Source: Eubacteriales bacterium (GTDB lineage Bacteria; Bacillota; Clostridia; Oscillospirales; CAG-272). Taken from it: a stretch of 35,962 bases of DNA. The stretch spans positions 1 to 35,962 of the forward strand of contig JAZRLJ010000137.1 in NCBI GenBank assembly GCA_045646755.1, given 5' to 3'. Positions 2 to 30,879 of the stretch are shown piece after piece. The notes under the pieces are model-generated. The model did no database searches. It saw only the letters and a program-made list of their open reading frames with translations, and was not told the origin of the DNA. Made by a program: the position numbers and the translations under genes. Within the stretch, counting starts at the first letter, position 1; every line of letters starts with the position of its first letter.

Positions 2-175
2 GAGCTCTCAAATCCTAAGGCGATATATACTCTCGCCTGCCTCTACGAATTTGACAGAGGCGTACAGTCTGACAAATATAAAGCCTATTGCTTATACGAG
101 GAGGCTGACAGACTAGGTTTCTTTGACGGTCATTCAAAATACAAGCTAACTATACTTAAAATGCTAAAAAAGTAA
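2..175 (+). CDS. 3' end of a Sel1-like (SLR/TPR) repeat protein, truncated by the window start
   Basis: Frame 2 reads ELSNPKAIYTLACLYEFDRGVQSDKYKAYCLYEEADRLG...MLKK*, which matches the Sel1 pattern A-x-x-x-L-[GA]-x-x-Y-x-x-x-x-G-V-x-x-D-x-x-x-A-x-x-x-Y-x-x-A-x-x-x-G. Stop TAA at 173-175. Confidence 0.75.
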   Translation, partial: ELSNPKAIYTLACLYEFDRGVQSDKYKAYCLYEEADRLGFFDGHSKYKLTILKMLKK

Positions 176-209
176 ACAACTTGTTACAAAAAAGAGGTTT
201 AAACAACAA

Positions 210-2072
210 ATGGAACGCGATACCGTTTTTCTTGGAATAAAATTAGGAGAACATTCTTTTAATCCGGATAATATGATGGAGGAAATACGGACCAGAGCTG
301 TAGAAACGGGCAAAAGGTTTGTTTATTTCCGTCCGCAAGGCTCTCTCGCAAGCATACCCGAGGAGTATATTCTGAAGTGGGCAAAATACCTTAGCGAAAA
401 CGAAATATACTTCTTCGTCGGCAATACCGTCCAAGCGCCTCCCCCGGATCGAAAATGTCAGCTTTCAAAGGAAACGGTAAAAAAGATAAAGGATATTGCG
501 GGAAAGTTTTTTCTTGGCGATTCCGTCAGAGAGCCCGGTACAACCTACTCCGCAAAATCTCCCGGATATTTCACCACCGATACACACAAGGGCGATCCTG
601 CAATTATCAATCCAAATCTTCCTGATATGGAAAAGGCGCATGAGAATTATATCTCCACCCTTACCGCCTTTGCGAATACGGACCGCGAATTTGGTATGCC
701 TAACGTCCTCACAGTAGAAGCTACCACCCTTATAAAATACGCTCTTGAAGCAGGAATAGACATTCCGATTTTGGAGGTAATGTGTGCAAATCCTGACGAT
801 ATGCTTCCCAGTGTAAGAGGAGCTGTCCGTGCCTACGGCAAAAATTTCTTCGCAACTCTTATCGCGCACGAGTGGTACGGAGGATTTAAGCATAGCGATA
901 CGCTTAAACGAAAGCGCCTTGATCTAGCCACAAAGTTTATCTATATGGCAGGCTCAAACGTAATTATGCTCGAAAGCGGCGACGAAGCGATAGGATCTTA
1001 CGGTGAGAAACACGATGCCGATTCCGAGGTATGCGAGGACTATCGCAGAGTTTTCCGTAATATCGGCAGTTTTATAGAAAACGACGAGCGTCCCAAGGGT
1101 GGTCCAAAGACAAAGCTTGCTTTCGTCTTTGGAAATCACGATGCTTGGCCGGGATTCTGCCAGAGCTCAGTATGGAACCAATGGAACAGAGAGGAATGGG
1201 GACATTCCGATGCAGAATTTTCTTGGAGAATACTGAGAGAATTAAATAAAAAGCGCACGTGGGGCGACGTTCACAACTACGGAGAAAACGATCTCTCCTC
1301 CTGCCCTGCATACGGCACGTACGATATACTCCCAATAGAAGCCCCTCTCACCGTACTTAACAGATACGAGTATCTTATATTCCTAGGCTGGAACACTATG
1401 ACGGACGAGAATTTGAAAAAGCTCATTGAATACGCAAAAGGCGGCGGAAAAATTCTTCTCTCCGGCGCGCATCTTAATTACAGCGCAAAGAGACGCGGAG
1501 AGTTTATACCGCCAAACGAAAACCTTTTAAAAGAGCTGTGCGGAATATCCTATAAGGGAAGCACGTCAAAAACCAACTACGGAATTAAATTCCGCGAGAA
1601 ATCCGCAGAAGAAAAGCATCTCTATCCCGGCACTGCTAACTTTGTTTGCGATCCCGTTTACAGCGCAGGATACGTGGAGTATATGGATATCGAGTTATGC
1701 GGTGCAGAAATGCTCGCAAAGACTGCAGACTGCTTTAGTGACAGAGGCACGGGAGAGCACGTCGCAATTGTAGAAAACCGCGTAGGAAAAGGCGTGGTAA
1801 CCTTTGTCGCAAGCGTAAATTACCCCGGAAACCCAGCTCTCTATCCTATGTATACCGATCTTGTGCGTGAAATGGTAAGCTCCAGCGCGAGAAACTGCGA
1901 AATCAAGGTTATCGCCTCAGATAAACTCAGATATACGGTTTACGAGGGTAATAAAATCTATCTTCTCAACACCGATTACGACCTTCCGATTACTGCAAAA
2001 ATTATTTACAAAGGAAGAGAAACCCTCGTAACGCTTAACTCACTTGAGCTTAAAGCTCTGCCACTCGAATAA
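210..2072 (+). CDS. Putative glycoside hydrolase of unassigned family (predicted TIM barrel + GH42 trimerisation-like domain), paralog 1
   Basis: 620 aa, GAGG RBS, no signal peptide. Shares the motifs GIxLGE, FLGxxxxExG, EAT, LExM, AHEWYxG, LESGD, LIFxGWNTMT, GGGKxL and YLLNTD with the three ORFs at 4296-9760. The segment YEYLIFLGWNTMTDENLKKLIEYAKGGGKILL resembles the GATase1-like middle domain of GH42 beta-galactosidases. Confidence 0.6.
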   Translation: MERDTVFLGIKLGEHSFNPDNMMEEIRTRAVETGKRFVYFRPQGSLASIPEEYILKWAKYLSENEIYFFVGNTVQAPPPDRKCQLSKETVKKIKDIAGKFFLGDSVREPGTTYSAKSPGYFTTDTHKGDPAIINPNLPDMEKAHENYISTLTAFANTDREFGMPNVLTVEATTLIKYALEAGIDIPILEVMCANPDDMLPSVRGAVRAYGKNFFATLIAHEWYGGFKHSDTLKRKRLDLATKFIYMAGSNVIMLESGDEAIGSYGEKHDADSEVCEDYRRVFRNIGSFIENDERPKGGPKTKLAFVFGNHDAWPGFCQSSVWNQWNREEWGHSDAEFSWRILRELNKKRTWGDVHNYGENDLSSCPAYGTYDILPIEAPLTVLNRYEYLIFLGWNTMTDENLKKLIEYAKGGGKILLSGAHLNYSAKRRGEFIPPNENLLKELCGISYKGSTSKTNYGIKFREKSAEEKHLYPGTANFVCDPVYSAGYVEYMDIELCGAEMLAKTADCFSDRGTGEHVAIVENRVGKGVVTFVASVNYPGNPALYPMYTDLVREMVSSSARNCEIKVIASDKLRYTVYEGNKIYLLNTDYDLPITAKIIYKGRETLVTLNSLELKALPLE

Positions 2073-2082
2073 AAATAAAAAA

Positions 2083-2128
2083 GAAGCTATCCTCGGCTGC
2101 TCTATGGCAGTTTTTAAAGGATAGCTTC
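2083..2128. terminator. Compound hairpin, probable bidirectional terminator between convergent genes
   Basis: GAAGCTATCCT (2083-2093) pairs with AGGATAGCTTC (2118-2128), with an inner CTGC/GCAG stem. A-tract upstream, T-rich downstream. Confidence 0.65.
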
Positions 2129-2142
2129 CTTTCATTTATATT

Positions 2143-2994
2143 TTAGTAAAACATTCCCTTGCCTTTTTCGTATTCGGAGGGGGTTATTCCGGTAAGCTTT
2201 TTAAAGGTTTTGGAAAAATAATGTAGCGAAGAAAACCCAAGACAGTCTGATATCTCGGTAAAGTTCATTTTTCCCTCCGAGATAAGCTCCTTTGAGCGCT
2301 CTATTTTAAGAGTGGTAAAAAAGCTTTTTACTCCACCTCTTTCCTTGAAAATCTGCTTTAGCTTCGAAAGACATATAGAATTTTTATCGGCTATCTCCTC
2401 GGCTGACAGATTTTCAGAAATATGCTCCGTAAGAAATTCTCTCACAGAATGAAATTCAGCGTCGCGACGGGAGGAGCTTTCATTTCTTGGCTTAGCATAG
2501 CATCTATGAAGGTCGAGAAGAAAGAGCTCAAGACGTTTTTTGAAGATTTCAAGCTCATACTTGTCCGCCCCGTCAACGATTATCATTCCGCTGATATTTC
2601 CGCCCTTCTCTCTCCTTCGGAAAAGCCTGAGTCCGATTTCTGCGATTTCACAGAATTCTCTCTCCTGACTTTCTGTCAGATGAATAGGTATACCATAAAT
2701 GTCCGGCAGTATAGGCGATGAGGACTCAAAGCTTATAATCAGAAGCTCACTGTCAGACGGACCGGGAGATTTATGAAATGTGCCGGGGGGTATTATGGAT
2801 AGATATCCTTTCGCCGAAATAGTTTCCCTACCGTTGCTCATTCCACGGTGAACACCTCTTGATACATAACTTATCTCCGGGAAAGCATGAGATTCTCCTA
2901 TTCCAACACCCATTCTATTGAAATCCACCCTGAGCACCGTATATATTCCGTCTACCGTAATTTGACTTGGCAGGGGCGCGCTGACGTATATCAT
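2143..2994 (-). CDS. AraC/XylS family transcriptional regulator with N-terminal cupin sensor
   Basis: N-terminal GESHAFPEISYVSRG cupin motif. C-terminal AraC HTH signature: ISDCLGFSSLHYFSKTFKKLTGITPSEY. Confidence 0.93.
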   Translation of the reverse strand: MIYVSAPLPSQITVDGIYTVLRVDFNRMGVGIGESHAFPEISYVSRGVHRGMSNGRETISAKGYLSIIPPGTFHKSPGPSDSELLIISFESSSPILPDIYGIPIHLTESQEREFCEIAEIGLRLFRRREKGGNISGMIIVDGADKYELEIFKKRLELFLLDLHRCYAKPRNESSSRRDAEFHSVREFLTEHISENLSAEEIADKNSICLSKLKQIFKERGGVKSFFTTLKIERSKELISEGKMNFTEISDCLGFSSLHYFSKTFKKLTGITPSEYEKGKGMFY

Positions 2995-3146
2995 TTTTAT
3001 CCTACCTCCTGTAAATACACCAAAAATACAAATTTTATGCCGATTTTACTAAATACAATAGGTTTTATTTGTGCTAAAATGACCTTACAGAGCAAGTATA
3101 ACACCAAGATTTGCTTCTGTCAATACCTTTATGAGAGGAAATTAAA

Positions 3147-4217
3147 ATGGATTTTTTAAGACTTGGCCTTATAGGCTGCGGAAAAATGATGGGTAGCCAC
3201 GTAGTAGGCGTAAAGTACGTTGATAACGTAGACATCGTTGCGGTATGCGACATAGTCAAGGAAAACGCTGAAGAGGTAGCAAAGGAGCTTGGCAATAATC
3301 CCAAGGTTTACACCAACTACAGAGATATGGTTGACGACGTAGACGCGGTTATGATTGCCCTCCCCCACGACCTTCACTACGAGTGCGGAATGTTCTTTGC
3401 CTTCCACGACAAGCACATACTTATGGAAAAACCTCTTTGCAACACCGAGGAAGAGTGCCTTAGCCTTATAGCTGAGTGCGAGAAGAGAAAGCTTAAGCTT
3501 ATGTGCGCTTACCCCGTACCCTTCTGGCGCGGAATAGTTAAGCTCAAGGAGCTTGTTGACTCGGGCGAATACGGAAAAATTATGCAGATGTCCATCTGGA
3601 CCGAGCAGCTGACTCAGCCTGACATCACGAAGGTCAACGTCTGGGGCGCAACCGCAAGAATCGGCGGCGGTCAGCTCTTCAGCCACGGCTGTCACTATAT
3701 CGACCTTCTTCTCCGCTTCCTCGGCAATCCCATTGAGGGCGCGCACGTAGGAACAAGAATCGGCACTCCCGGACTTCTCAAGGAGGGCACGAGCGCTCTC
3801 GTTATGAAGTTTGAGAACGGTGCTCTCGGCTATCACGGAGCAACCTGGGGAGCTAGAGGCTCAAGAATGTCCTACGACTTCCAGATTATGACCGAAGCGG
3901 GACTTCTCGACTACGAGCATGCATCAGGAGAGATAAGATTCTACAACGGAAACGGCGAGCACAAGCCCGATGGCGGCTCTGAAAGACAGCAGTATAACGT
4001 TATCTGGAAGAGAGAGGAACAGCTCGGCAAGGCTACTCAGTACGAAATCCGTCACTTTACCGACTGCGTTCTTAACGACAAGACTCCCCTCACCGACGGC
4101 AAGGTTGCTATCCAGAGCCTCAGAGTTATCTGGGAGCTTTACGACGCGGAAAAGAACCACAGACTCGCAAACCTTCGCGGCCTTGGACTTAACGACTTCG
4201 ACAAGAAGAGAGATTGA
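3147..4217 (+). CDS. Gfo/Idh/MocA family NAD(P)-dependent oxidoreductase
   Basis: Rossmann GLIGCGKM, ALPHDLH, HILMEKP and GGGQLFSHGCHYIDL motifs. GAGG RBS. Confidence 0.92.
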   Translation: MDFLRLGLIGCGKMMGSHVVGVKYVDNVDIVAVCDIVKENAEEVAKELGNNPKVYTNYRDMVDDVDAVMIALPHDLHYECGMFFAFHDKHILMEKPLCNTEEECLSLIAECEKRKLKLMCAYPVPFWRGIVKLKELVDSGEYGKIMQMSIWTEQLTQPDITKVNVWGATARIGGGQLFSHGCHYIDLLLRFLGNPIEGAHVGTRIGTPGLLKEGTSALVMKFENGALGYHGATWGARGSRMSYDFQIMTEAGLLDYEHASGEIRFYNGNGEHKPDGGSERQQYNVIWKREEQLGKATQYEIRHFTDCVLNDKTPLTDGKVAIQSLRVIWELYDAEKNHRLANLRGLGLNDFDKKRD

Positions 4218-4235
4218 TTCCAAATATTCAAATAG

Positions 4236-4267
4236 AAAAGGAAGAGATTTTCACATCTCTTCCTTTT
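4236..4267. terminator. Bidirectional rho-independent terminator
   Basis: AAAAGGAAGAGAT-tttcac-ATCTCTTCCTTTT perfect 13-bp inverted repeat between convergent genes. Confidence 0.85.
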
Positions 4268-4295
4268 GTTTTTCTCCAAAAACGTAAATGTAATT

Positions 4296-6092
4296 TTACA
4301 TTTTTATGTGTTTTATCTCGCAAGGAGCAAGAATTATATCTTCTGTCTTTCCGCATTTTTCAACTCTTGCAAAGGCAGGAATGTCAAAATCGGTATTAAG
4401 AAGATAAACGTCGCCTCCCTCATAAACCGAGTATCTTATCTTATCCGAAGCAAGAACTTTTACCTCAGCCTCTCTTGCAACGGAGCTCATAAGCTCACGT
4501 ACTACGGTACGATAGACGTCGTATGTCTGACCTGCTCCCGGATAGTCAAGAGAGGTGAGAAGAATTGCAAGACCCTCTCCCACTTTGTTCTCTATCATAG
4601 CGGGTGCGCCCTCGGAATTCGTCTTTTCATTAAAGCTGTCGCTAAGAATCGCCGCGGGCACGGCAGTACCAAGCTCAATTGAAGCGTAATTTGCATACCC
4701 AGAAGAGAAAAGCGGGTCGAAGACCTTGTCGGCAGGGTAGATAATATCCTCGCTTAAACTCTTAGTGAACTTAACTCCCGCATTAGTCCTACGGGGAGCA
4801 TCGGCAGAAATCTTACAGCCGAAGAGCTCGGTTAAGTCGCCCCCGTTTATAAATGAAATCTCACCATTACGCTTGTCGGAGGTATTGAGGTGAGGGGCAC
4901 ACATAAGAAGCTTTCCGCCACCCTTCACGAAGGAAACGAGAACTCTGTAAATTTCCTCCGTCATCGTATTCCAACCGGTGAAAATGAGGGTATCGTAATT
5001 CTTTACGTTTTCCTCGGTCAGATATCCTGCGTTTACTATGTCGTACGGCACAAATCCGCTAAAGTCCCTATCGCCAAAGTTATGCACGTCACTCCAGCTT
5101 CTCTTGTTTACAACGTCCAAAAGAATTTTGTTTGTAAACTCTGGCGCGCCATATCCCCACGCCTCGTCGTTTACGTTATTAAAAAGCGCGCTTCCCGCAT
5201 TCCAAGGGCTCCAGCCGTCAAGATTTCCCTGCACAAAGGCAATCTTTACGTCAGGCATAGCTGCGGGGCGCTTATCCTGTTCCACGAAATCGGTAAACTC
5301 GTCAAGTGTTCTGCGATAGAAAACAGGAAGCTCTCCGTCATATCCCTGCTCCATTCCATGACTATACATAGAGAGGTCGCCACTCTCGAGGATAACTGCG
5401 TTTGCTCCGTTCATATAAGAATGATTGTAAACCATTCTAAGTCTTTTCCTCTTGAGCTCATCGTCGTTATAAACTCCCGCATACCACTCGTGCGCGATGT
5501 AGTTCATATAGGGCTTGCCCGTAATTCTTGCCGCACCTCTGATAAGGGGAGTCATTATATCAACGTTTCCACACATCGTTTCAAGCGAAAACATAGAAAC
5601 GCCAACGTCGGTAAGATACGATAGAAGCGAGGTTGCCTCTGTAAATGTAAAGCCGATATCCTCAGGATAACCGTAAGCGTCACGCGCCGCCTTTACAACC
5701 TTGATAAACTCACTTTTTCCCTCGCTGAGTCTCTCGTAATTATGAAAATGGGGAGAGTGCTTATATCCCTTACCCGCGCAACCGAATATAGTGCCAAGCT
5801 CGGGAAGCTCTATGCCAAGGAAATATTTTCCCGCTATTCTCTTTATCTCGGAGACCGCAAGCACAGAAAACGGAGATGGCTCATACTGTCCCCACGCGAG
5901 ATGGAAGTATATCTTATTGTCCGCAAGATACTTTGCCCACTCGTAAAACTTTTCGTCGGGAACGTCAGTTCTTCTTACCGATATAGCGGTGTAATTTTTT
6001 CTACCCTTGACGCACTTCTCGTAGATTTCGTCAATGAGAGTTTCGGGGTCTATTCCGTACTCTCCAAGTCTGATCCCGTTAAGAAACTCCAT
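4296..6092 (-). CDS. Putative glycoside hydrolase of unassigned family, paralog 2
   Basis: 598 aa. Motifs GIRLGE, PELG, EAT, LETMCG, AHEWYAG, LESGD, LIFTGWNTMT. Last gene of a three-gene tandem operon. Confidence 0.6.
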   Translation of the reverse strand: MEFLNGIRLGEYGIDPETLIDEIYEKCVKGRKNYTAISVRRTDVPDEKFYEWAKYLADNKIYFHLAWGQYEPSPFSVLAVSEIKRIAGKYFLGIELPELGTIFGCAGKGYKHSPHFHNYERLSEGKSEFIKVVKAARDAYGYPEDIGFTFTEATSLLSYLTDVGVSMFSLETMCGNVDIMTPLIRGAARITGKPYMNYIAHEWYAGVYNDDELKRKRLRMVYNHSYMNGANAVILESGDLSMYSHGMEQGYDGELPVFYRRTLDEFTDFVEQDKRPAAMPDVKIAFVQGNLDGWSPWNAGSALFNNVNDEAWGYGAPEFTNKILLDVVNKRSWSDVHNFGDRDFSGFVPYDIVNAGYLTEENVKNYDTLIFTGWNTMTEEIYRVLVSFVKGGGKLLMCAPHLNTSDKRNGEISFINGGDLTELFGCKISADAPRRTNAGVKFTKSLSEDIIYPADKVFDPLFSSGYANYASIELGTAVPAAILSDSFNEKTNSEGAPAMIENKVGEGLAILLTSLDYPGAGQTYDVYRTVVRELMSSVAREAEVKVLASDKIRYSVYEGGDVYLLNTDFDIPAFARVEKCGKTEDIILAPCEIKHIKM

Positions 6093-6102
6093 TCTAATCC
6101 TC

Positions 6103-7923
6103 TTAGATTTTAATATGCTTTATCTCACAGGGAGCGAGAGTCACCTCTACAGTCTTGCCGTTCTTCTCAACTCTTGCATACGAAGGAACGTCAAAGTCGG
6201 TGTTAAGAAGATATACGTCCCCGCTCTCGTATACCGTGAAACGCACTCTGTCGTTTGCAAGGACCTTCACGTCGGCAGTCTTGTGGCTTGCTCTGAGAAG
6301 CTCACGCACTACCGTTCTGTATATATCATAGGTCTGTCCCATTCCCGGATAATCAAGAGAGGTAAGAAGAATTGCGTATCCCTCTCCGAGCTTATTTTCA
6401 AGGAGAGCCACGTTTTTGTCAACGTTATTTTTCTCGGAGAAGCTAGTGCTGAGAATTGCCACGCCCTTAGCGCCGTCAAGCTCACACTTAGCGTATCTTG
6501 CGTATCCCGAGGAAAGAAGCGGGTCAAAGCTGGTCTTATCGTAAGGATATCTTATATCCTCGCACTGACTTTCATAGAATTTAACGCCCGCGTTTGAAAC
6601 ATGAACGTTCTTGTAGTCAAGTCTTGCGCCGAAGAGCGCGGAGAGGTCTCCGTCTCTTATCAGATTTATCTCGCCGTTTCTCTTCTCACTTGTATTGAGG
6701 TGAGAAGCGCACATAAAGAGCTTTCCTCCGCCCTTCACGTAAGAAATAAGCTTCTCATATATTTCCTCGGTCATTGTATTCCAGCCGGTAAAGATGAGGT
6801 AATCGTATTTATAAAGATCCTCTGCACTGACAAGACCAATATTAACCATATCGTAAGTGCCGTAACCGGGAGCTCCACTCAAGTCCTGCTCACCGAAATT
6901 GTTTACGTCACACCAACGGCGCTTAGTACCAAGCTCCGAGAGGATTTTATAGGTAAACTCGGGCGCGCCAAATCCCCAGTCCCTATCGTTTACGTTGTTG
7001 AAAACAGTGCTTCCCGCTCTGAAGTTGCTGTATCCGTCAAGATTACCCTGAACGAATGCAACCTTGGTTATGGGATAAGCCTCGGGGCGCTCGTCTGTTT
7101 CAAGAAAATCAGAGAATTCGTCAAGAGTTCTGCGGTAAAACTGAGGAAGCTCGTGGTCGTAGCCTACTTTGAGTCCGTGGCTTGACATACATAGGTCGCC
7201 GCTCTCAAGAATTATTCCTGCAGAGCCGTTCATATACGAATAATCGTACGCCATACGAAGCCTCTTCTTCTTGAGCTCGTCCTCATTATGAACGCCTGCG
7301 TACCACTCGTGCGCTACGTAGTTTATATATCCCTTGTCGCCCTTCGCCTTTGAAGTTCCTCTAACGAGAGGGGTAAGCTCCTCAACGTCGCCGCACATCG
7401 TCTCAAGCATGAGCATACCGGGGCCTGTCTCGGGTATGTAAGAGATAAGGTTAGTCTGCTCTACTACACCGACCTCGAAATCGGGGAAAAATCTGAGTCT
7501 GTCCATTCTCTCGTGCAGAAGACTAAAGAATCCGTCCACACCCTCACTCATATTTTCATAGTTATGATGATAATTCTTCTTTGTGTATCCGTATCCCGAG
7601 CAACCGTAAATATTTCCAAGCTCAGGAACGAAAACTCCGAGAAAATGCTCTCCCGCAACCTTTCTCATTTCAGCTGCGGTTTCAGCATTAAAGGGAATTC
7701 TGAACTTCATATTTCTTGAGCAGGCAAAATGGAAATATATGTCGTTTTCTGCCATATACTTTGCCCAGGAAATAAACTTTTCGGGTTCTATTTCCTCGTC
7801 TCTGTAAACAGCTATAGCCGTGTAATTTTTTCTTCCCTCAACACATTTTTCGCGTATTTCGTCAATTACCGTATCGGGATTTAATGCGTATTCGCCTATT
7901 CTGATTCCGTTAAGAAATTTCAT
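6103..7923 (-). CDS. Putative glycoside hydrolase of unassigned family, paralog 3
   Basis: 606 aa. Same motif set, with EQT in place of EAT. 10-bp gap to paralog 2 contains a GAGGA RBS. Confidence 0.6.
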   Translation of the reverse strand: MKFLNGIRIGEYALNPDTVIDEIREKCVEGRKNYTAIAVYRDEEIEPEKFISWAKYMAENDIYFHFACSRNMKFRIPFNAETAAEMRKVAGEHFLGVFVPELGNIYGCSGYGYTKKNYHHNYENMSEGVDGFFSLLHERMDRLRFFPDFEVGVVEQTNLISYIPETGPGMLMLETMCGDVEELTPLVRGTSKAKGDKGYINYVAHEWYAGVHNEDELKKKRLRMAYDYSYMNGSAGIILESGDLCMSSHGLKVGYDHELPQFYRRTLDEFSDFLETDERPEAYPITKVAFVQGNLDGYSNFRAGSTVFNNVNDRDWGFGAPEFTYKILSELGTKRRWCDVNNFGEQDLSGAPGYGTYDMVNIGLVSAEDLYKYDYLIFTGWNTMTEEIYEKLISYVKGGGKLFMCASHLNTSEKRNGEINLIRDGDLSALFGARLDYKNVHVSNAGVKFYESQCEDIRYPYDKTSFDPLLSSGYARYAKCELDGAKGVAILSTSFSEKNNVDKNVALLENKLGEGYAILLTSLDYPGMGQTYDIYRTVVRELLRASHKTADVKVLANDRVRFTVYESGDVYLLNTDFDVPSYARVEKNGKTVEVTLAPCEIKHIKI

Positions 7924-7939
7924 TTTTTCTCTCCCCCTC

Positions 7940-9760
7940 TCAAACCCTTACGTGCTTTAATTCGGAGGGCGCGAGGGTTACCTCGGTCGCCGCACCGTCT
8001 TTCTCTATTCTTGCATAGAGAGGAATGTCAAAATCAGTATTAAGAAGATAAACGTCACCGCTCTCGTATACCGAGAAGCGTACCTTATCGTTTGCAAGCA
8101 CCTTTACGTCAGCTGCTCTGTGGCTTGCAGAGAGAAGCTCACGCACTACTGCTCTGTAGCACTCGTACGTCTGTCCGGCTCCGGGATAGTCAAGAGAGGT
8201 GAGAAGAATTGCATATCCCTCTCCAAGCTTATTTTCGGTTATCGCAATTCCGCAGTCGGGAACAGCAGCCACGGCAAAGGTATCGCTGAGAGTTGCCACA
8301 GGCTTAGCTCCGAGAAGCTCTACAGCCGCATAATTCGCATATCCCGCAGAGAAAGAGGGGTCGTAAGATCCCTTGTCATAAGGATAGATTATATCCTCGC
8401 ACTGACTCTCAAAGAATTTAACACCGGTGCTTGTGACGTAAGCGTTTTCCGCGTCAAGTCTTGCTCCGAACAGTTCCGTAAGATTACCGTCACGAAGAAG
8501 CTTTACCTCTCCGTCGCGTCTGTCGTTAGTATTAAGGTGAGAAGCGCACATAAAGAGTCTTCCGCCGCCCTTTACGTAGGAAATAAGCTTCTCGTATATT
8601 TCCTCGGTCATAGTGTTCCAGCCGGTGAATATAAGGTAATCGTATGCCGAAAGAGCTTCTGCACTGACAAGTCCGATATTGACTATATCAAAAGTTCCGT
8701 ATCCGGGCGCACCGCTGTAGTCACGAGGACCGAAATTGTTAATATCGCACCAACGTCGCTTGGTTCCAAGCTCGGATAGAATTCTGTTGGTAAACTCAGG
8801 AGCTCCGTAGCCCCAGTTCTTATCGTAAATATTGTTCCAAAGGGAGCTTCCGCAATTCCATGAGCTCCAGCCGTCAGAGTTACCCTGAACAAATGCAACC
8901 TTGGTTATGGGATATCCCTCGGGACGATTATCTGTCTCAAGGAAGTCGGTGAATTCATCAACGGTTTTTCTATAGAATACGGGAAGCTCGTGGTCATATC
9001 CCTCTCTCATTCCGTGGCTGCACATACAGATGTCACCGCTCTCGAGAATGATTCCGCCTCCGCCGTTCATATAAGAATAGTCATATACCATGCGAAGTCT
9101 CTTCTTCTTAAGCTCGTCCGCATTGTCAACGCCACCGTACCATTCGTGCGCTACGTAGTTAAGGTACGCCTTGTCGCCTCTTGCCTTTGCGCTTCCTCTG
9201 AGGAGAGGAACTGTATTCTCAACGTCACCGCACATAGTTTCAAGCACGGGAATTCCCGTTCTTGCGGCGGTTACGTAGGAGACAAGAGAGGTTGCCTCGA
9301 TAACGCTGATACCGATATTCTCGGAAAATCCTATTCTGTCTACAGCCTCGTTAACGTGAGCTATAAAACCGTCTCTTCCCTCACTCATTTCTTCAATATC
9401 GTGGTATCCTGCAAGCTTACCGTATGCACTGCCCGAGCAAGCGTACTTACTGCCAAGCTCAGGAACGAGTATTCCGAGAAAATGCTCTCCCGCTACCTCT
9501 TTTATCTTATCCGCCGTTTCCGCATCAAAGGGGAAACCAAGGCTCTTATCTGCGCTGAATGCAAAATGAAAATATATATCGTTTTCGGCCATATACTTTG
9601 CCCACGAAAGAACCATTTCGGGAGCTATAGTTTCACCCCTGTAAAGAGCTATGCTCGTATAGTTCTTTCTGCCCTCGATGCATTTCTCGCGTATCTCGTC
9701 TATCACGGTATCCGGGTTAAGCTCGTATTCGCCGATTCTTATTCCGTTAAGAAATTTCAT
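7940..9760 (-). CDS. Putative glycoside hydrolase of unassigned family, paralog 4
   Basis: 606 aa. Same motif set. AAGGAG RBS upstream. First gene of the tandem operon. Confidence 0.6.
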   Translation of the reverse strand: MKFLNGIRIGEYELNPDTVIDEIREKCIEGRKNYTSIALYRGETIAPEMVLSWAKYMAENDIYFHFAFSADKSLGFPFDAETADKIKEVAGEHFLGILVPELGSKYACSGSAYGKLAGYHDIEEMSEGRDGFIAHVNEAVDRIGFSENIGISVIEATSLVSYVTAARTGIPVLETMCGDVENTVPLLRGSAKARGDKAYLNYVAHEWYGGVDNADELKKKRLRMVYDYSYMNGGGGIILESGDICMCSHGMREGYDHELPVFYRKTVDEFTDFLETDNRPEGYPITKVAFVQGNSDGWSSWNCGSSLWNNIYDKNWGYGAPEFTNRILSELGTKRRWCDINNFGPRDYSGAPGYGTFDIVNIGLVSAEALSAYDYLIFTGWNTMTEEIYEKLISYVKGGGRLFMCASHLNTNDRRDGEVKLLRDGNLTELFGARLDAENAYVTSTGVKFFESQCEDIIYPYDKGSYDPSFSAGYANYAAVELLGAKPVATLSDTFAVAAVPDCGIAITENKLGEGYAILLTSLDYPGAGQTYECYRAVVRELLSASHRAADVKVLANDKVRFSVYESGDVYLLNTDFDIPLYARIEKDGAATEVTLAPSELKHVRV

Positions 9761-9800
9761 TTTTTATTTCTCCTTCATAGATTTTTGCTATAACAAGGAT

Positions 9801-9829
9801 ATGATACCATACATTTTAATAAAGTTCAA
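9801..9829 (-). promoter_or_regulatory. sigma-A type promoter for the paralog 4-3-2 operon
   Basis: Minus strand TTGAAC-17 nt-TATCAT with extended TG. Confidence 0.55.
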
Positions 9830-9839
9830 CCCTTTTCTA

Positions 9840-9869
9840 TTGACAAAGATAGAAAAAATATAGTAAAAT
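9840..9869 (+). promoter_or_regulatory. sigma-A type promoter for the DUF4317 gene
   Basis: TTGACA-18 nt-TAAAAT. Confidence 0.55.
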
Positions 9870-9899
9870 ACCTTAACTAACTTAATAGGAAACGAGGTT

Positions 9900-11033
9900 T
9901 TGAAAATGACTGAAAGAGAGCTTAGAGAAATCAAAAGACGCTTCCGTCCCGAAAGAAGCAATATATCAAAAATAGTAGGCTGCTTCGTAAACGAAAACAA
10001 GCAGATAATATACAGAATAAATCAGCCCGTCGAATTTGCCGAAAGTGAGCTTAGCGAAAGACTGCTCACTTCTATGAAAAAGGTCCTCTCGGGAAGCCTC
10101 GGCACAAACCTTACCGATATTTCCTTCAGCACAAAGCAGGTGCTCGAGAGCGAGGAGCACGCCCTCCTTACGAAGCTGCGCGAGAGTCACCTCTCCGATT
10201 CCGATGCGCTTGAAAAATTCTACGCTAACGTTATAGAGAGCATAAAAATCGAGGGCAACTACGTAATACTTCTCGCAAACGATATATACGACGTCTTTGA
10301 ATATTCAAAGGACGGTGAAAATAGTGAGTCGAGCGAAGTATTTTCTTACATTGTATGCGCGGTATGTCCAATAAAGAGTCTGCCCGAGGCGCTTACCTTT
10401 AAGGAAGCGGACAGCCTTTTTCACCCTCTTAGTCTTACGGGTGTCCTCGCTTCTGCAGAGCTCGGATTTATGTTTCCCTGCTTTGACGGAAGACGCACGA
10501 ACATTTATAACGCGCTCTTCTACTCCAGAAACCTCGGGGAGAGCTATCCCGATTTTGCGAAAAAAATATTCTCCTCCGAACCCAAAATGCCCCCGAAGGC
10601 TCAGAAAGCGGCATTTGCCGAGTGCCTGAGCGCAGCTCTCGGTGAGGAATGTAGCTACGACGTTGTACGTGCGCTTCACGAGGAGGTCGCTGCCATGATA
10701 GAGGTGCATAAGGAGACAAAGGACCCCGAGCCTCTCACCGTTACGAAAACGACTGTGAAGGATGCCCTCGAAAAGCTTGGCGTAGAGGAAGAAAAGATAG
10801 AAAAGCTCGGCGAGAGCTTCGAGGAAAGCTTCGGAAAAAACGCAGAGCTTTCTCCTAAAAACATTCTGTCTCCCAAGAAGCTTGAGCTTCAAACTCCCGA
10901 TATAAAAATAAAAGTATCCTCCGACAGAGGAGACCTTGTTTCAACCAAAGTAATAAACGGCACGAAATACGTCATGATAAAGGTAGAGGGCTCAGTAGAG
11001 GTAAACGGAATAACGCTAAATATAGAGGAATAA
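9900..11033 (+). CDS. DUF4317 family protein (conserved clostridial protein)
   Basis: The N-terminus ELREIKRRFRPERSNISKIVGCFVN, the LGFMFPCFDGRRTNI motif and the C-terminal INGTKYVMIKVEGSVEVNGI are typical of DUF4317. Start is TTG 9900 or ATG 9906. Confidence 0.8.
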   Translation: MKMTERELREIKRRFRPERSNISKIVGCFVNENKQIIYRINQPVEFAESELSERLLTSMKKVLSGSLGTNLTDISFSTKQVLESEEHALLTKLRESHLSDSDALEKFYANVIESIKIEGNYVILLANDIYDVFEYSKDGENSESSEVFSYIVCAVCPIKSLPEALTFKEADSLFHPLSLTGVLASAELGFMFPCFDGRRTNIYNALFYSRNLGESYPDFAKKIFSSEPKMPPKAQKAAFAECLSAALGEECSYDVVRALHEEVAAMIEVHKETKDPEPLTVTKTTVKDALEKLGVEEEKIEKLGESFEESFGKNAELSPKNILSPKKLELQTPDIKIKVSSDRGDLVSTKVINGTKYVMIKVEGSVEVNGITLNIEE

Positions 11034-12519: not shown

Positions 12520-12556
12520 AAAACAAAAAGCTCGGAAAATTCCGAGCTTTTTGTTT
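12520..12556. terminator. Bidirectional rho-independent terminator
   Basis: AAAACAAAAAGCTCGGAA-aa-TTCCGAGCTTTTTGTTTT between convergent genes. Confidence 0.88.
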
Positions 12557-12565
12557 TTATATAAT

Positions 12566-13630
12566 TTAAAGATTGATGGTGTTAGCAACCTCGTAAAGAA
12601 CCTCAAGCTCAGCGCGTCTTTCAGCTGCAAGAGCCTTCATTCTGTCAAGCTCCTCAGTGCTAAACGCATCAAGGTCGCCGTCCTTGAGCTTGCCCTTGTA
12701 CATTCTGTCAAGGATAAGAGCGAAGTTGATATCAACAGACTCAATATCGCCGTTGCGCTGGCAGATAACGAGATTAGACTTGCCTGCAAGAAGCTCCTTT
12801 ACTGCAAAAACACCCATAGCAGATGCCATTACTCTGTCGCGGAGATTGGGGCTACCGCCTCTTACGATATGAGCAAATCTTGCAAACTTGGTTTCAACGC
12901 CGGTCTCAGCCTCAATCTTCTTTACAAGAGCGGGAGCATACTCGCTTCCTACACCCTCGGAAACAACTACGATAAAGTTACGCTTGCCAAGCTTTCTTGC
13001 TGCGTTTATCTTCTCGCAGATAGCGTCGGCATCATAAGAAAACTCGGGGATTACGCAAGCGGTTGCGCCTGCAGCAATTGCAGCGTTAAGAGCAATATCT
13101 CCGGCGCCTCTTCCCATAACCTCAACTACGTTGCAGCGCGCGTGAGATTCACAGGTATCGCGGAGCTTGTCGATAAGGTCAATAACAGTGTTCATAGCTG
13201 TATCATATCCGATAGAATTATCGGTAGAGGAAATATCGTTATCTATGGTTGCGGGAATACCAACGCAGGGAATTCCGTGAGCGGTAAGGTCGGTAGCTCC
13301 TCTGAAGGTTCCGTCACCGCCTATAGCTACAACGCCGTCAATACAGAGCTTCTCGCAGGTTTCAATAGCCTTAGCCATTCCCTCTGCGGTCTTGAACTCG
13401 GGGCATCTGTCAGAATAAAGAACCGTACCTCCCTTGTTGATTATGTTGGATACGTCTCTTATTCCAAGAGGCTTTACATCGCCGTCGATAAGTCCCGAGT
13501 ATCCGCGGGAAATACCCATTACCTCAACGCCGTTTGCAAGCGCTGCTCTTACGACAGCTCTTACAGCTGCGTTCATTCCGGGCGCGTCTCCACCCGAGGT
13601 GAGTACGCCTATTCTTCTGAAAGTTTTCAT
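12566..13630 (-). CDS. pfkA: ATP-dependent 6-phosphofructokinase
   Basis: LTSGGDAPGMNAA, IGGDGT, PATIDND, VEVMGR and HIVRGG motifs. Confidence 0.96.
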   Translation of the reverse strand: MKTFRRIGVLTSGGDAPGMNAAVRAVVRAALANGVEVMGISRGYSGLIDGDVKPLGIRDVSNIINKGGTVLYSDRCPEFKTAEGMAKAIETCEKLCIDGVVAIGGDGTFRGATDLTAHGIPCVGIPATIDNDISSTDNSIGYDTAMNTVIDLIDKLRDTCESHARCNVVEVMGRGAGDIALNAAIAAGATACVIPEFSYDADAICEKINAARKLGKRNFIVVVSEGVGSEYAPALVKKIEAETGVETKFARFAHIVRGGSPNLRDRVMASAMGVFAVKELLAGKSNLVICQRNGDIESVDINFALILDRMYKGKLKDGDLDAFSTEELDRMKALAAERRAELEVLYEVANTINL

Positions 13631-13672
13631 CTATCTATTCTCCATTTTTATTATTTACAGTTTCGGAATTTT

Positions 13673-13701
13673 ATTTTAACACATATTTCGGGCTTTTTCA
13701 A
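13673..13701 (-). promoter_or_regulatory. pfkA promoter
   Basis: Minus strand TTGAAA-17 nt-TAAAAT with extended TG. Confidence 0.6.
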
Positions 13702-13760
13702 TACTTATTTTGTATTTTCTTCGTTTTAGTTTATTTTCGCAATAAATATTTTTACCTGCA

Positions 13761-19453: not shown

Positions 19454-21154
19454 TTATTTCTTAGTATTCATTTCAATGATTTTACGGGTTCCATAATATC
19501 TGTATACCTCTTCCTCAAAATAATCCTCGTCATAATAATCGTCGATTTCACTCTTAAGAATATCAAGTTCCGCTTTATAAGCGGCATCATCAAGAGTTGA
19601 GAACTTTTCACTGTTGGATTCGATATAGTAATCAAGTATATCGTTGTAAAGAAGCGCGCGTATACTTGCATACTCTTCGTCTGTAGGAAGTATATTTTCT
19701 TCCCTTATTATATAATAGAAGATAAGATTCTGAGTTAAATCCCATTCAGCAAGCTCACGAATAGCGCCCTTCCAGTCAGAATTTGAGGAAAGTCCCATTC
19801 CGTAGGTTTCGTTAAGGTAAGCTATAGCCAGAGAATCAAGAGTTTCGTAATACTGAGAATAATATCCGCTGTTATAAAGCGACTGTATTCTTGAATAATA
19901 TGAATCGTAATACGATTCAAGCGTTTTGCTCGGAAGCTTGATTATCTTAACATTACCCATAAGGTGATCCCACATTTTATTAGTGAGAAGCTGAACGTTG
20001 GTATCTTCAATTTCCTCCTTGGTGTCAGCAAAAATCTTAGCCTTATATCTTTCAGCAAGAGTGCTTCCGGGATAAGAGGAATAGTCAGACACTCTCACCT
20101 TAACCTTCTCGGTAAGAATGGTGTCGTCAAATTCAGGTACGTCGTAGCTACACGCACTGCTGACGAAAACGTCGAAATAAGCATCAACTCCTCTGAGACT
20201 CTCTTCACCGTAGTTTGCAGGGAATCTTACCTGTATAGTAATGGGAGTGGACTCCGTGCCTCTGGTGACGAAAGAAACCTGAATATCAGAATAAACGGTT
20301 TCGGTTGAATGTCCGGTCTTTCTTACGGTGAAAGGCTCAAGCTCCTCACCTATAGCCTTACCTATAAGATAGGAAGAAAAGCCGTCGCCGTAAAGCTCGT
20401 CTATATAAGAAAGACTAAGGTCTATTCTCTCGTTTTCAATAAGCTCACTGTTTCCGTCCTCGCCGATAACGCTGTAAGTAAGATATACAATGTCTCCTGC
20501 CATAACGGTGCTCTGTCTTATCTTATCGACAACCGAATACGCACCGGGCACTATTCCGACAAGCGACTCGCCGAATCCGGGGATAAAGCTGCCACTGGAG
20601 TTTCCGGTGCTCTCGTCTATAATCTTACCCGTTCCAACCTCGAGAAGGGTAGTTTTATCGGGAATGTTAGACGAGCCCGCAAAATCCTTCTGTCTGCCGT
20701 TTTCATCTACGGTATAGCCTCTGTAGTATATGTATACCGTATCGCCAACAGAAAGCGGTCTTGCCTTATCATAAGCGCCGTTAAGCTCCTTGTTAAGCGT
20801 CTTATAATTTGTGAGAAGCATATTTATCTTGCGGTCTACAATCTTCTGCACAGCAGAGTCAGACGTATCGTCTAGCGGAATGTTAAAATCTATTCCCTTA
20901 TAATCCTCTGCGGAAATCTCTATATATTTCGTAAGGTCTGCCTTAAGAAGATTTGGGTTACTAGTGCCCTTTGAAAGAACTACGGCACCGATTATTATTC
21001 CGCTTACGATAATCGCCGCAACGGTAACCGCTATAAGAATGATTATCTGCTTTCTGGTAAGCTTTTCCTTTTCCTTCTTAGGCTTCGCCTTTACGTTTTT
21101 TACTCCGTTGCCCACCTTTGCTGTGGGCTTCTTGTTTGATTTTTTATTTGCCAT
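19454..21154 (-). CDS. Membrane-anchored trigger factor-like protein (FKBP PPIase + TF C-terminal-like domain)
   Basis: Lys-rich N-terminus plus one TM helix. TF-type FKBP motifs GDTVYIYYRG, SFIPGFGESLVG and VRFPANYGEESLRG..AYFDV, then VPEFDD and helical MWDHLMGNVKIIKLP...IIREENILPTDEEY. No GFRxGKxP ribosome-binding motif. Confidence 0.8.
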   Translation of the reverse strand: MANKKSNKKPTAKVGNGVKNVKAKPKKEKEKLTRKQIIILIAVTVAAIIVSGIIIGAVVLSKGTSNPNLLKADLTKYIEISAEDYKGIDFNIPLDDTSDSAVQKIVDRKINMLLTNYKTLNKELNGAYDKARPLSVGDTVYIYYRGYTVDENGRQKDFAGSSNIPDKTTLLEVGTGKIIDESTGNSSGSFIPGFGESLVGIVPGAYSVVDKIRQSTVMAGDIVYLTYSVIGEDGNSELIENERIDLSLSYIDELYGDGFSSYLIGKAIGEELEPFTVRKTGHSTETVYSDIQVSFVTRGTESTPITIQVRFPANYGEESLRGVDAYFDVFVSSACSYDVPEFDDTILTEKVKVRVSDYSSYPGSTLAERYKAKIFADTKEEIEDTNVQLLTNKMWDHLMGNVKIIKLPSKTLESYYDSYYSRIQSLYNSGYYSQYYETLDSLAIAYLNETYGMGLSSNSDWKGAIRELAEWDLTQNLIFYYIIREENILPTDEEYASIRALLYNDILDYYIESNSEKFSTLDDAAYKAELDILKSEIDDYYDEDYFEEEVYRYYGTRKIIEMNTKK

Positions 21155-21174
21155 ATATGTCTCCGAAAACTTAT

Positions 21175-21606
21175 TTATAGCGAATCGGCATAACCGGTAG
21201 CAAGAGCGTCACATCTCTCGTTATAATCGTGGCCGTTATGCCCCTTTACCCACACGAAGGTAACCTCGTGCATCTCGGTCAAGGAAAAGAGTCTGTCCCA
21301 CAAATCAGGATTCTTTAACTCTTCCTTACCCCTGCGCCAGCCTGCCTTCTGCCAGGAATATACCCAGCCCTGATTATAGGCGTCAACAAGGTATTTAGAA
21401 TCCGAATAGAGCTTCACCTTACAAGGCTCCTTGAGAGCGGAAAGCCCCGCTATCGCAGCCATAAGCTCCATTCTGTTATTGGTAGTTTCCTTTTCTCCGC
21501 CGCTTATCTCTTTTTCATACTTTCCGTATACGAGAATCGCGCCGTATCCGCCCTTGCCGGGATTTCCCCTGCAAGCGCCGTCAGTATAAAGCTCTACTTC
21601 CTTCAT
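21175..21606 (-). CDS. rnhA: Ribonuclease HI
   Basis: [38 protein letters not shown] and [18 protein letters not shown] motifs. Confidence 0.98.
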
Positions 21607-21618
21607 TTCTCTACCTTC

Positions 21619-21650
21619 AAAAAGAGGCTGACTCGTTATGGGCCAGCCTC
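21619..21650 (-). terminator. Terminator-like hairpin after the lipoprotein gene, upstream of rnhA
   Basis: GAGGCTG...CAGCCTC stem, followed by TTTTT on the minus strand. Confidence 0.6.
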
Positions 21651-21670
21651 ATTTTATAAACGTCAAATAC

Positions 21671-23683: not shown

Positions 23684-23765
23684 TTTGTTTTCCTCTATTG
23701 TAAAATTATTTTTAACACTTTCAGAAAAGCAGGCGAATAACGCCTCTTTTTCATTCGTACAGATT

Positions 23766-23794
23766 ATTATAACACAAATTTCCGAAAAATGCAA
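23766..23794 (-). promoter_or_regulatory. Promoter of the TF-like lipoprotein gene
   Basis: Minus strand TTGCAT-17 nt-TATAAT with extended TG. Confidence 0.65.
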
Positions 23795-23829
23795 ATACTT
23801 TTTTAAAATAATATCATTTGTTTATAGTG

Positions 23830-26800: not shown

Positions 26801-26898
26801 GCGGCAATCGAAACGAGCATAACGCTAAGAAGAATAAGCAAAAGGCGTCTTTTTTGTTTTTGCCTTGAAAGGCGGATAATTTCCTGTCTGGATTTCAT
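23830..26898 (-). CDS. Large membrane-anchored DUF4340-like protein with three internal FKBP-like repeats
   Basis: 1022 aa with an N-terminal TM. LRGFGLDDPQVVISF...IKIGDRNVTGFGYY and DRYGLYTHTVYF...LFIS are DUF4340-type segments. Located directly downstream of the GldG-like genes, the usual DUF4340 context. Confidence 0.65.
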   Translation of the reverse strand: MKSRQEIIRLSRQKQKRRLLLILLSVMLVSIAAAILLVSIMSGDNSSSPKSDPPEILAGESLENNYPIAYPTVQESQIQRIIITNKASYKDYFGEDKAPKTSYALVRDDDFDGQFVLYYEDKDKNTKIYYPKVANEDVTFDYESLYSVEQSDGYGRIYKLTYLCVALELPYFTDRIALLPEGEKQESQLRGFGLDDPQVVISFDYVNENKETVTRNIKIGDRNVTGFGYYFMVTEETKSASGTKIEYRPYIYNSMAEYYNYAMLGFYSYVNSILVSAGLEEDSSYEPYLTTDYKQWKNSKIEAVGTPIEKDSTAIAVAKILTPVESRLDKTEYEKDKDRFILDQEYNAELDKYEDGYHKGKASAIEIDLSKKDGYEKFAKALVGQTIGVFGEKIVVTLHTDTKNLYLDENTASVTYTYEITEIESIITDGADVTALGTTVGDNNLVRVKYKLKINGKSASEVYQHGVLDLSNTKIDSATIRAAKIGELSSPINLTVVYTAENSINKNVKYVVDEIIEIYNEKGQIVDIVTDKCQVYYRYCFYINGVKTEYETGAVNFATDTSDFAEKLKAVFVGKDLTKKEEVKNLGIKLFEYTSYYEYMQDFITYEIGEVKAFVVSKLISAFAFQNKSERDSFYGESIYENKMTDKNSLYAINSATCETVVKMLGGIADNSNTSAGLVGIENVAVGITPEMKDRYGLYTHTVYFELPRGVISIDSGESETVDDYSQYQKLGFTLFISDETFDPDLGMYVRFVGSDMYDIISKVDAEKLKFLNYVDEDTAFVEFWARKSLMIFDINNLESLRFEFLMDDLKGDYEFYIPHISKDENSFDVVATEKCLVSGTRVHTETCGCRLTKLTELRGEKSSANISLLYTKYFVTDGDRHLNSAGFLLYGSNPNGDTAGVGYFRELVGGIYSTSYGGYLTMAEQQEALNSPLLMRMSVKLDQETAENTTTDLHVYEFYRLDDRRIMVCQYQADAKGNVTTEKVTDFYISTLAFKRIVGNAFAVLNAEVVDQDVAYPEVSK

Positions 26899-26909
26899 CT
26901 TTTGCTCCT

Positions 26910-28577: not shown

Positions 28578-28581
28578 TAGC

Positions 28582-30144: not shown

Positions 30145-30159
30145 ATTCTACGGCACCTC

Positions 30160-30867: not shown

Positions 30868-30879
30868 CGCTTAACCTCC

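Follow-up and report, generated by a model that had tools for sequence, protein, structure and literature searches.

Paralogs of a large, unnamed protein family with a GH42-type scaffold and a trimmed, re-equipped barrel in an Eubacteriales genome

Among the known proteins closest to those studied here are glycosidases of families GH42 and GH164 and the GlmA-type members of GH35. GH42 enzymes (3tts, 5e9a, 4oif, and 5xb7) are cytoplasmic exo-enzymes, either beta-galactosidases or alpha-L-arabinopyranosidase; they are homotrimers in which the active site lies where domains A and B meet, and they are recognized by the Pfam families PF02449, which covers the catalytic barrel, and PF08532 (GH42M). 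The GH35 group (5gsm, 6jow, 8oug, and 7vky) comprises the GlmA-type exo-beta-D-glucosaminidases and the beta-1,2-glucosyltransferase IALB_1185; GlmA itself is a dimer of chains of about 780 residues with a 435-residue barrel. For the GH164 beta-mannosidase Bs164 (6t5o), the structural report gives a barrel at residues 22 to 389 with a helical subdomain after strand 4, and Asn-159, Glu-160, and Glu-297 as fully conserved in the family (PMC7105311). Here, we describe four paralogous genes at one end of a 35,962-nucleotide stretch of DNA (contig JAZRLJ010000137.1, positions 1 to 35,962; the whole stretch is called the window below) from an Eubacteriales bacterium of the Oscillospirales (GCA_045646755.1), whose 1.74-Mb assembly of 201 contigs is 91% complete with 3.3% contamination. 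The encoded proteins are built most like the GH164, GH42, and GlmA-type GH35 exo-glycosidases, yet none of the three sequence definitions fits them. The family that they represent combines a scaffold of the GH42 type with a barrel that has been trimmed and re-equipped, and, judged against Pfam, NCBIfam, and PDB sequences, it is likely a new glycosidase family related to GH42 and GH164. On balance, we favor the view that the four proteins are cytoplasmic members of a large unnamed family of intracellular glycosidases of the GH42, GH164, and GH35-GlmA type.

A first-pass annotation made from the DNA letters alone had proposed four paralogs of about 600 residues without signal peptides, and the open reading frames (ORFs) are as it described (Table 1). 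None has a hydrophobic N terminus, the highest 12-residue Kyte-Doolittle mean near that end being at most 0.81, and the highest 19-residue mean anywhere in the four proteins is at most 1.28; neither a signal peptide nor a membrane segment is apparent by these measures. P0001 is 39 to 40% identical to the other three paralogs, and P0003 shares 60% identity with P0002 and 69% with P0004.

P0003 was modeled with AlphaFold2 on a 40-sequence alignment, giving a predicted local distance difference test (pLDDT) score of 92.3 and a predicted template modeling (pTM) score of 0.93. The model has the (beta/alpha)8 barrel of clan GH-A, and its barrel strands are exactly the eight that the first-pass annotation had counted in the sequence (residues 4 to 9, 34 to 38, 63 to 67, 94 to 100, 151 to 155, 171 to 174, 200 to 203, and 236 to 239), each followed by a helix. 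Past the barrel come an alpha/beta, GH42M-like domain (approximately residues 288 to 548) and a small, six-stranded beta domain (residues 552 to 605), so that the GH42-type three-domain layout suggested at first pass is borne out by the model as well as by the profiles described below. In a whole-chain Foldseek search of the PDB, the nearest solved structures were clan GH-A enzymes, with the GH35 protein IALB_1185 (7vky) at the top (E, 7.5e-20; TMq, 0.63) and GH42 3tts, GlmA 6jow and 5gsm, and GH164 6t5o as the other best matches. The barrel folded alone (285 residues) has a pLDDT of 88.8. When it was compared with 48,161 representative chains by VIA-align, at least 48 of the best 50 rows were glycosidases by title, GH164 and GH5 heading the ranking. 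The language-model neighbors of the barrel were likewise all glycosidase barrels (GH98M at 0.86, "GH_cat," and GH42); since their scores are all below 0.9, they serve as a lead only.

The relationship can be followed in sequence through the second and third domains. PF22369 (GLMA_2nd), which the family has in common with the GlmA-type proteins and IALB_1185, is the sole Pfam family above its cutoff in P0002 to P0004 (28.9 to 30.3 bits versus 27.7), with a match that spans merely some 50 to 100 residues of domain 2, and PF08532 lies under its gathering cutoff in all four window paralogs (14.8 to 23.2 versus 25.8 bits). In a diverse set of 73 family sequences, reaching down to 21% identity, PF08532 matched 55 and PF22369 matched 52. 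The NCBIfam model for the GlmA type, NF041127 (exo-beta-D-glucosaminidase), gave the window paralogs 15.2 to 16.2 bits, far under its cutoff of 1500, and touched residues 348 to 445 or so. Sequence searches of the PDB with profiles of the 4 and of the 73 sequences matched domains 2 and 3 of GH42, GlmA, and IALB_1185 proteins and nothing else. An hhalign comparison of the family with one GH42 sequence gave a probability of 96.6%, confined to the same two domains, whereas an alignment of 40 family sequences, set against a single GH42 sequence, gave nothing (1.8%). Against a GH42 profile of 32 sequences from genomes of the same class, the probability was 99.0%, pairing family columns 142 to 613 with GH42 columns 237 to 681 and placing strands 5 to 8 in register; a forced global alignment brought strands 1 to 4 into register as well, with low per-column confidence there. 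By these profiles, the homology of domains 2 and 3 to their counterparts in GH42-type enzymes is demonstrable, and the two domains stand in the same order.

The described families differ from the present one in several respects. Bs164 shares the fold, yet it is absent from the 19 PDB sequences that the 73-sequence profile found at E values up to 10, and its identity in structural alignments is 9 to 12%; its model numbering starts at residue 22, whereas the window proteins have no signal peptide. The family barrel, at about 285 residues, is shorter than those of Bs164 and GlmA and some 100 residues shorter than that of GH42, and the whole proteins, at about 600 residues, are smaller than GlmA. 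Two further families were compared by description: GH173, which resembles GH5 and GH30 rather than the family studied here (PMC8810776), and GH165, whose candidate founders are proteins of 79.6 kDa, 109 kDa, or with a five-bladed propeller (PMC5342196) and thus differ in size or fold. Literature searches brought up no description of the family, and nothing relevant came up under SSO3021, GLMA-like, or PF22369.

Several observations weigh against reading these proteins as glycosidases of the familiar kind, and the first concern the barrel. No catalytic-domain family matched any of the 73 diverse members. PF02449 in particular matched 0 of 73, none of the window four at E values up to 1, and no protein in the source genome; the first-pass annotation had likewise remarked that recognizable GH42 N-terminal motifs are lacking. 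Residues 1 to about 340 of the window paralogs have no Pfam or NCBIfam match at all. A barrel-only hhalign comparison with the GH42 barrel was not significant (26.9%), and the kinship of the family barrel with GH42-type barrels extends to fold and strand order but no further. In addition, Foldseek with the barrel alone ranked metal-dependent ketose 3-epimerases, acting on D-psicose or D-tagatose, first (8xiv; E, 6.4e-07), with TMq values of 0.55 to 0.61 (0.61 for 4pfh_A); next, with similar E values, came branching enzymes of GH13 and barrels of GH5, GH79, and GH35.

That ranking is the starting point for an alternative in which a GH42-type scaffold bears a xylose-isomerase-like barrel whose metal-dependent activity on sugars would be that of an isomerase, epimerase, or eliminase. 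The carboxylates E101, E/D155, E174, and E240 (P0003 numbering) would form a ring and, together with H205 or H243, bind Mn, Co, or Zn, and the substrates could be 3-keto-glycosides supplied by neighboring NAD-dependent oxidoreductases. The ketose 3-epimerases and their xylose-isomerase-like relatives (8xiv, 4pfh, and 2hk0; PF01261) have barrels of a similar size, about 290 residues, and also bear carboxylates and a histidine at successive strand ends; in the family, conserved carboxylates end strands 4, 5, 6, and 8, and a histidine lies by strand 7 or 8. A forced global alignment with a 28-sequence PF01261 profile set E174 on the first metal-ligand glutamate within a common short motif, but just one of the four Glu-Asp-His-Glu ligand columns coincides in that alignment, whose probability is 24%, and a local hhalign comparison of the barrel alone with PF01261 proteins was not significant (13.6%). 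PF01261 does not match any of the four paralogs at E values up to 1, no ketose epimerase appears in the best 50 rows of the exhaustive VIA-align search, and H205 is present in 24 of 73 diverse members. Oxidoreductase genes do adjoin some paralogs (the Gfo/Idh/MocA gene in the window, a GH109-like gene on contig C119, and one case in locus L053), PF01261 proteins occur among the neighbors counted below, and the window oxidoreductase weakly resembles DgpA-type glycoside 3-dehydrogenases. The ketose 3-epimerases nevertheless lack the second and third domains, which in the family are homologous to glycosidase domains, and we regard a metal-dependent isomerase or eliminase as improbable.

The catalytic residues raise counterpoints of their own. 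Six glutamates that the first-pass annotation had named are invariant in the four window paralogs and were correctly numbered, as the alignment and the codon positions confirm (E14, E108, E170, E189, E221, and E255 in paralog 1). Of these, E108 and E221, equivalent to E101 and E206 of P0003, had been put forward as the clan GH-A pair of acid/base and nucleophile on strands 4 and 7, a pair whose carboxylates are expected about 5 to 6 Å apart in retaining enzymes of the clan. The first half of that proposal stands up well. E101 directly follows strand 4, is present in 73 of 73 diverse members, and, in the forced global alignment, where per-column confidence is low, falls on the acid/base glutamate of the GH42 Asn-Glu motif; by position and invariance, its assignment as the predicted acid/base is well supported. 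The asparagine of the clan GH-A motif is missing, though. Position 100 is glycine in 48 of the 73, asparagine is not among its six commonest residues, and the residue before the acid/base is proline in paralogs 2 to 4 and arginine in paralog 1, unlike Bs164 with its conserved Asn-159. A departure from Asn-Glu has a precedent in the GlmA group, for which a review describes the preceding residue as reading the C2 substituent, with asparagine for a hydroxyl and aspartate for NH3+, so that GlmA carries an Asp-Glu that binds the C2 amine (PMC6566704). The same review warns that the catalytic residues of the group cannot be predicted reliably from sequence (PMC6566704).

The second half of the proposed pair fared less well. 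E206 is found in 29 of the 73 diverse members, the others having mainly glycine (20), alanine (6), or valine (5), and in the 99.0% hhalign alignment the GH42 nucleophile column falls on V203, a position occupied by valine or isoleucine in the family, with E206 three residues further on. The family divides accordingly: in a group of 29, strand 7 is followed by Ala-His/Asn-Glu-Trp-Tyr and strand 8 by Glu-Ser-Gly-Asp, and in a group of 44 the corresponding motifs are Ala-Met-Gly-Trp-Tyr and Glu-Ser-Gly-His. No compensating or group-specific acidic column was found in the 44 members without E206. All of the source-genome copies belong to the E206-bearing group, and E206 is kept in 15 of 15 covered rows among the 19 matches in that genome. 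Among the 40 more closely related sequences, no variation occurs at E101, E174, or E240, and conservation is 90% or higher at E155, H205, and E206. For the Clostridial subfamily, then, E206 is the best single guess for the nucleophile, and a tentative one. Since E206 is not family-wide while E174 and E240 are nearly universal, a retaining mechanism on strands 4 and 7 is plausible rather than established.

The same distribution can be read differently, as that of glycosidases outside the 4/7 type of clan GH-A whose center is formed by the family-wide E101, E174, and E240. Catalysis would then use a strand-4/strand-6 pair, as in alpha-glycoside clans, or one acid with two bases in an inverting reaction, and H205-E206 would contribute to specificity within the Clostridial subfamily. 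E174 on strand 6 is present in 72 of the 73 diverse members, E240 on strand 8 in 69 (glutamine in 3), and position 155 on strand 5 is glutamate in 41 and aspartate in 21, and the 44 members that lack E206 retain E101 (44), E174 (44), E240 (40), and an acid at position 155 (37). In the P0003 model, E174 and E240 are placed right where their strands end. The nearest named language-model clusters of the barrel, a lead only as said, are those of GH98, an inverting family with a glutamate acid and aspartate or glutamate bases. Noncatalytic acids near strands 6 and 8 are, on the other hand, also a feature of GH42 and GH164: E174 aligns with the aspartate of the GH42 strand-6 motif in the 99.0% alignment, and in Bs164 a Glu-346 after strand 8 is described as binding the sugar in addition to Glu-160 and Glu-297 (PMC7105311). 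The conserved acids of strands 6 and 8 need not, therefore, be catalytic. Every structural neighbor that shares the three-domain build works through strands 4 and 7, and we judge a center of the non-4/7 kind a serious alternative, though an unlikely one. It is also doubtful, if a shade less so, that the family is a GH42-shaped scaffold without clan GH-A chemistry, centered on a ring of carboxylates from strands 4, 5, 6, and 8 and having no obligatory strand-7 nucleophile.

An exhaustive hidden Markov model (HMM) search of 1.84 billion representatives, clustered at 50% identity, found 769 clusters at E values up to 0.001 and 251 at up to 1e-30. A word-based search returned 296 proteins; among the 120 listed, 7 had a name at the source, in each case "hypothetical protein." With the 40-sequence alignment, 159 relatives were confirmed on contigs from one genome per species, and 77 loci were kept. 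These come from Oscillospiraceae, Faecousia, Eubacteriales, and Clostridia of animal and human guts and of digesters, along with a few Armatimonadota and WS1, and all are from metagenome bins or unnamed isolates, for the most part uncultured Clostridia of guts and digesters. Some distant members are fusions, in which the partner is GH2, a polysaccharide deacetylase together with heparinase II/III, or DUF4874/DUF4832. In the second of these, P0189 (1424 residues), the family domain is joined to a polysaccharide deacetylase domain and to a lyase of the heparinase II/III-like kind; as a "Rosetta-stone" fusion, it gives a hint of glycosamino­glycan-like, partly de-N-acetylated substrates. That the proteins are noncatalytic relics, serving as sugar-binding or regulatory proteins with a retained GH42-like fold, is barely credible: the canonical Asn-Glu and a universal strand-7 glutamate are indeed missing, and most source-genome copies have no adjoining transporter, but the strand-end acids are strictly conserved across the 73 sequences, the genes lie in operons with catabolic enzymes, and the family fills hundreds of representative clusters.

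The family had been taken to consist of the four genes in the window, and this must be revised, as the source genome has 19 matches, 11 covering the whole model and 8 cut by contig ends. Because of these truncations, the true copy number is roughly 15 to 19. By summed match length, they amount to 28.4 kb, or 1.6% of the assembly, and many stand in tandem arrays, with four pieces on contig C76, three on C169, two on C16, and three plus one in the window (C137). Mis-binning of small paralog contigs was considered and rejected, given ordinary G+C fractions (0.39 to 0.46 versus 0.44 for the genome) and tetranucleotide distances (1st to 71st percentile); the window and contig C100 also carry housekeeping genes. 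In a FastTree tree of 90 sequences, not a full maximum-likelihood search and so provisional in its deep branches, nine source-genome copies form a clade exclusive to that genome, on a long stem with a support of 100. They lie on contigs C76, C169, C16, C32, C126, C119, C132, and C107, mostly as repeated modules of a divergent AraC regulator with one or two paralogs, and contig breaks often fall inside them. This clade is, on the evidence of the tree, a duplication burst in the source lineage. The window trio groups with one sequence from an Eubacteriales metagenome-assembled genome, and P0001 and the C100 copy are each placed with Oscillospiraceae or Faecousia sequences, apart from the trio; the placement indicates that the window's four genes derive from at least two old family lineages and from no single recent quadruplication. 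At E values up to 1e-20, a threshold that could miss distant subfamily members, and with several of the surveyed genomes incomplete, matches were found in 2 of 24 genomes of species of the same genus, and the 16 genomes taken from the order's other families gave none. Both congeneric matches are broken, one being a single full-length copy with an in-frame TAG (G010:C65:13508-15316) and the other a 73-residue fragment with a TGA (G008:C47:5156-5374), and they look like decaying copies.

Regulators of the AraC type adjoin most of the paralog loci, being found beside paralogs on C137, C119, C132, C76 (three), C169, and C32, so that at least eight source-genome copies stand next to such a gene, which is divergent from a paralog on all of these contigs except C137. 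On C119, the regulator is followed by an operon made up of a GH109-like oxidoreductase gene, one paralog, and a GH39-like gene. On C132, it is followed by a paralog, a 719-residue protein, an aldo/keto reductase, a NagB-like gene, and two NagA-like amidohydrolases; this apparent operon occupies positions 175 to 8463 of the minus strand, and its 719-residue protein has no Pfam match even at an E value of 0.1. A census of 135 immediate neighbors at the 77 related loci, which are not mutually independent, counted 11 AraC regulators, 5 sugar ATP-binding cassette (ABC) transporter parts, and 4 each of GH88-like proteins, amidohydrolases, PF12831 flavoproteins, and proteins of about 900 residues with an aminoglycoside-N-acetyltransferase-like domain, the last from closely related loci. 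There were three each of GlcNAc-2-epimerase family members and xylose-isomerase-like barrels (PF01261), two GH1 proteins, and one each of GH2, GH20, GHL6, GH123_N, PIG-L deacetylase, DegT aminotransferase, and Gfo/Idh/MocA proteins. Many of the remaining neighbors are housekeeping genes, and the surroundings are heterogeneous, with 177 clusters among the 250 neighbors within two genes; Pfam at E values up to 0.1 gave nothing useful for 11 unassigned neighbor proteins. Amino-sugar genes are frequent near the family, a point of likeness to GlmA-type glucosaminidases. The context is one of carbohydrate catabolism with an amino-sugar and uronic-acid flavor and without a fixed dehydrogenase partnership.

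A partnership of that kind had been proposed at first pass, with the paralogs and the adjacent Gfo/Idh/MocA dehydrogenase as one pathway unit that oxidizes the released sugar or primes the glycoside. The two are adjacent in the window, a GH109-like oxidoreductase gene lies directly upstream of a paralog in the C119 operon, and P0006 has weak similarity to sugar or glycoside C3-dehydrogenases, its nearest solved relatives being of the WlbA type (3q2k; E, 9.7e-22) and DgpA (9m3d; E, 1.1e-17), while all NCBIfam equivalogs are far under their cutoffs. However, such a gene was a single one of the 135 neighbors counted, and none stands beside the paralogs on C76, C169, C32, C132, or C100. In the window itself, P0006 is a separate transcription unit, transcribed alone from the region where it diverges from the AraC gene and converging on the three-gene array with a terminator-like hairpin in between. 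The coupling is, in our estimate, quite improbable.

The remaining features of the locus are collected in Table 1. The three minus-strand paralogs are spaced by 16 nucleotides (P0004 to P0003) and 10 nucleotides (P0003 to P0002), which suggests a single operon. The AraC gene is convergent with paralog 1, and its AraC_binding match is marginal (Pfam E, 0.0052). Divergent from the array and sharing its 139-nucleotide upstream region is a DUF4317 gene (positions 9900 to 11033, plus strand; E, 5.3e-117), followed by a gene for a transporter of the sodium:neurotransmitter symporter family. Further along, a 392-residue ORF without a Pfam match (12551 to 13729, plus strand) overlaps a 354-residue ORF on the opposite strand (12566 to 13630). 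Large ORFs occupy positions 19454 to 31857 of the minus strand, one of 566 residues with a weak Trigger_C match and then ones of 707, 1022, and 555 residues with no family match, after which come a 520-residue ABC_transp_aux (GldG-like) protein, an ABC-2 permease, and an ABC ATPase. A search of sequencing runs found no RNA run and a single DNA run, in which 0.05 of the words sampled were present.

Table 1. Positions of the paralogs, their domains and candidate catalytic codons, and adjoining features in the window
Feature	Positions	Strand	Description
Paralog 1 (P0001)	210..2072	+	620 aa; GH42-shaped, three domains; family-profile E 3.0e-239
P0001 E108 codon	531-533		Candidate catalytic residue
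P0001 H220-E221 codons	867-872		Candidate catalytic residues
AraC-family regulator (P0005)	2143..2994	-	283 aa; HTH_18 1e-11, HTH_AraC 4.9e-11 (Pfam)
Gfo/Idh/MocA NAD(P)-dependent sugar oxidoreductase (P0006)	3147..4217	+	356 aa; PF01408 7.2e-22, PF22725 1.1e-15
Terminator-like hairpin	4236..4267		13 pairs; between the Gfo/Idh/MocA gene and paralog 2; from a consensus scan only
Paralog 2 (P0002)	4296..6092	-	598 aa; third and last gene of the array; family-profile E 1.5e-259
Paralog 3 (P0003)	6103..7923	-	606 aa; protein used for AlphaFold2 modeling
P0003 barrel	7069-7923		aa 1-285
P0003 GH42M-like domain	6280-7068		aa 286-548
P0003 beta domain	6106-6279		aa 549-606
P0003 E101 codon	7621-7623		
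P0003 E155 codon	7459-7461		
P0003 E174 codon	7402-7404		
P0003 H205-E206 codons	7306-7311		
P0003 E240 codon	7204-7206		
Paralog 4 (P0004)	7940..9760	-	606 aa; first gene of the array; family-profile E 2.8e-272
Intergenic region upstream of array	9761..9899	-	Common to the divergent DUF4317 gene
Promoter-like site	9829..9801	-	9/12 consensus matches; predicted from consensus, not functional evidence

Returning to the intracellular glycosidase reading that we favor, the proteins would share ancestry and build with the GH42, GH164, and GH35-GlmA exo-glycosidases, in which a (beta/alpha)8 barrel is followed by an alpha/beta domain of the GH42M type and then by a small beta domain; the barrel has presumably been trimmed to about 285 residues and diverged past sequence recognition. 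They would act inside the cell, trimming imported oligosaccharides or glycosides; different paralogs would probably take different sugars, and most may be switched on by an AraC-type sensor of their own. For the Clostridial subfamily, we tentatively propose retaining hydrolysis with E101 as the acid/base and E206, just past strand 7 within the A-H-E-W-Y motif, as the nucleophile, while E174 on strand 6, E240 on strand 8, and E/D155 on strand 5 would hold the sugar. The acid-rich pocket, together with the neighboring gene families, may point to amino-sugar-containing substrates.

The family is large, and annotation by Pfam and NCBIfam passes over it. If its members are glycosidases, they constitute a blind spot in counts of carbohydrate-active enzymes (CAZymes) for gut bacteria of the Oscillospiraceae type. 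With the Asn-Glu motif missing and the strand-7 glutamate not universal, these proteins may illustrate the way in which a barrel of the GH-A type alters its catalytic apparatus. Should the carboxylate ring of strands 4, 5, 6, and 8 prove to be the catalytic center, the family would represent either a new mechanistic class of glycosidases for amino-sugar-rich substrates or a metal-dependent enzyme that cleaves or isomerizes glycosides, and its amplification in this one gut species, with many copies paired to AraC-type regulators, would be a modular sense-and-cleave repertoire. The AraC-paired expansion would, in this bacterium, be a compact system for matching sensors to enzyme specificities.

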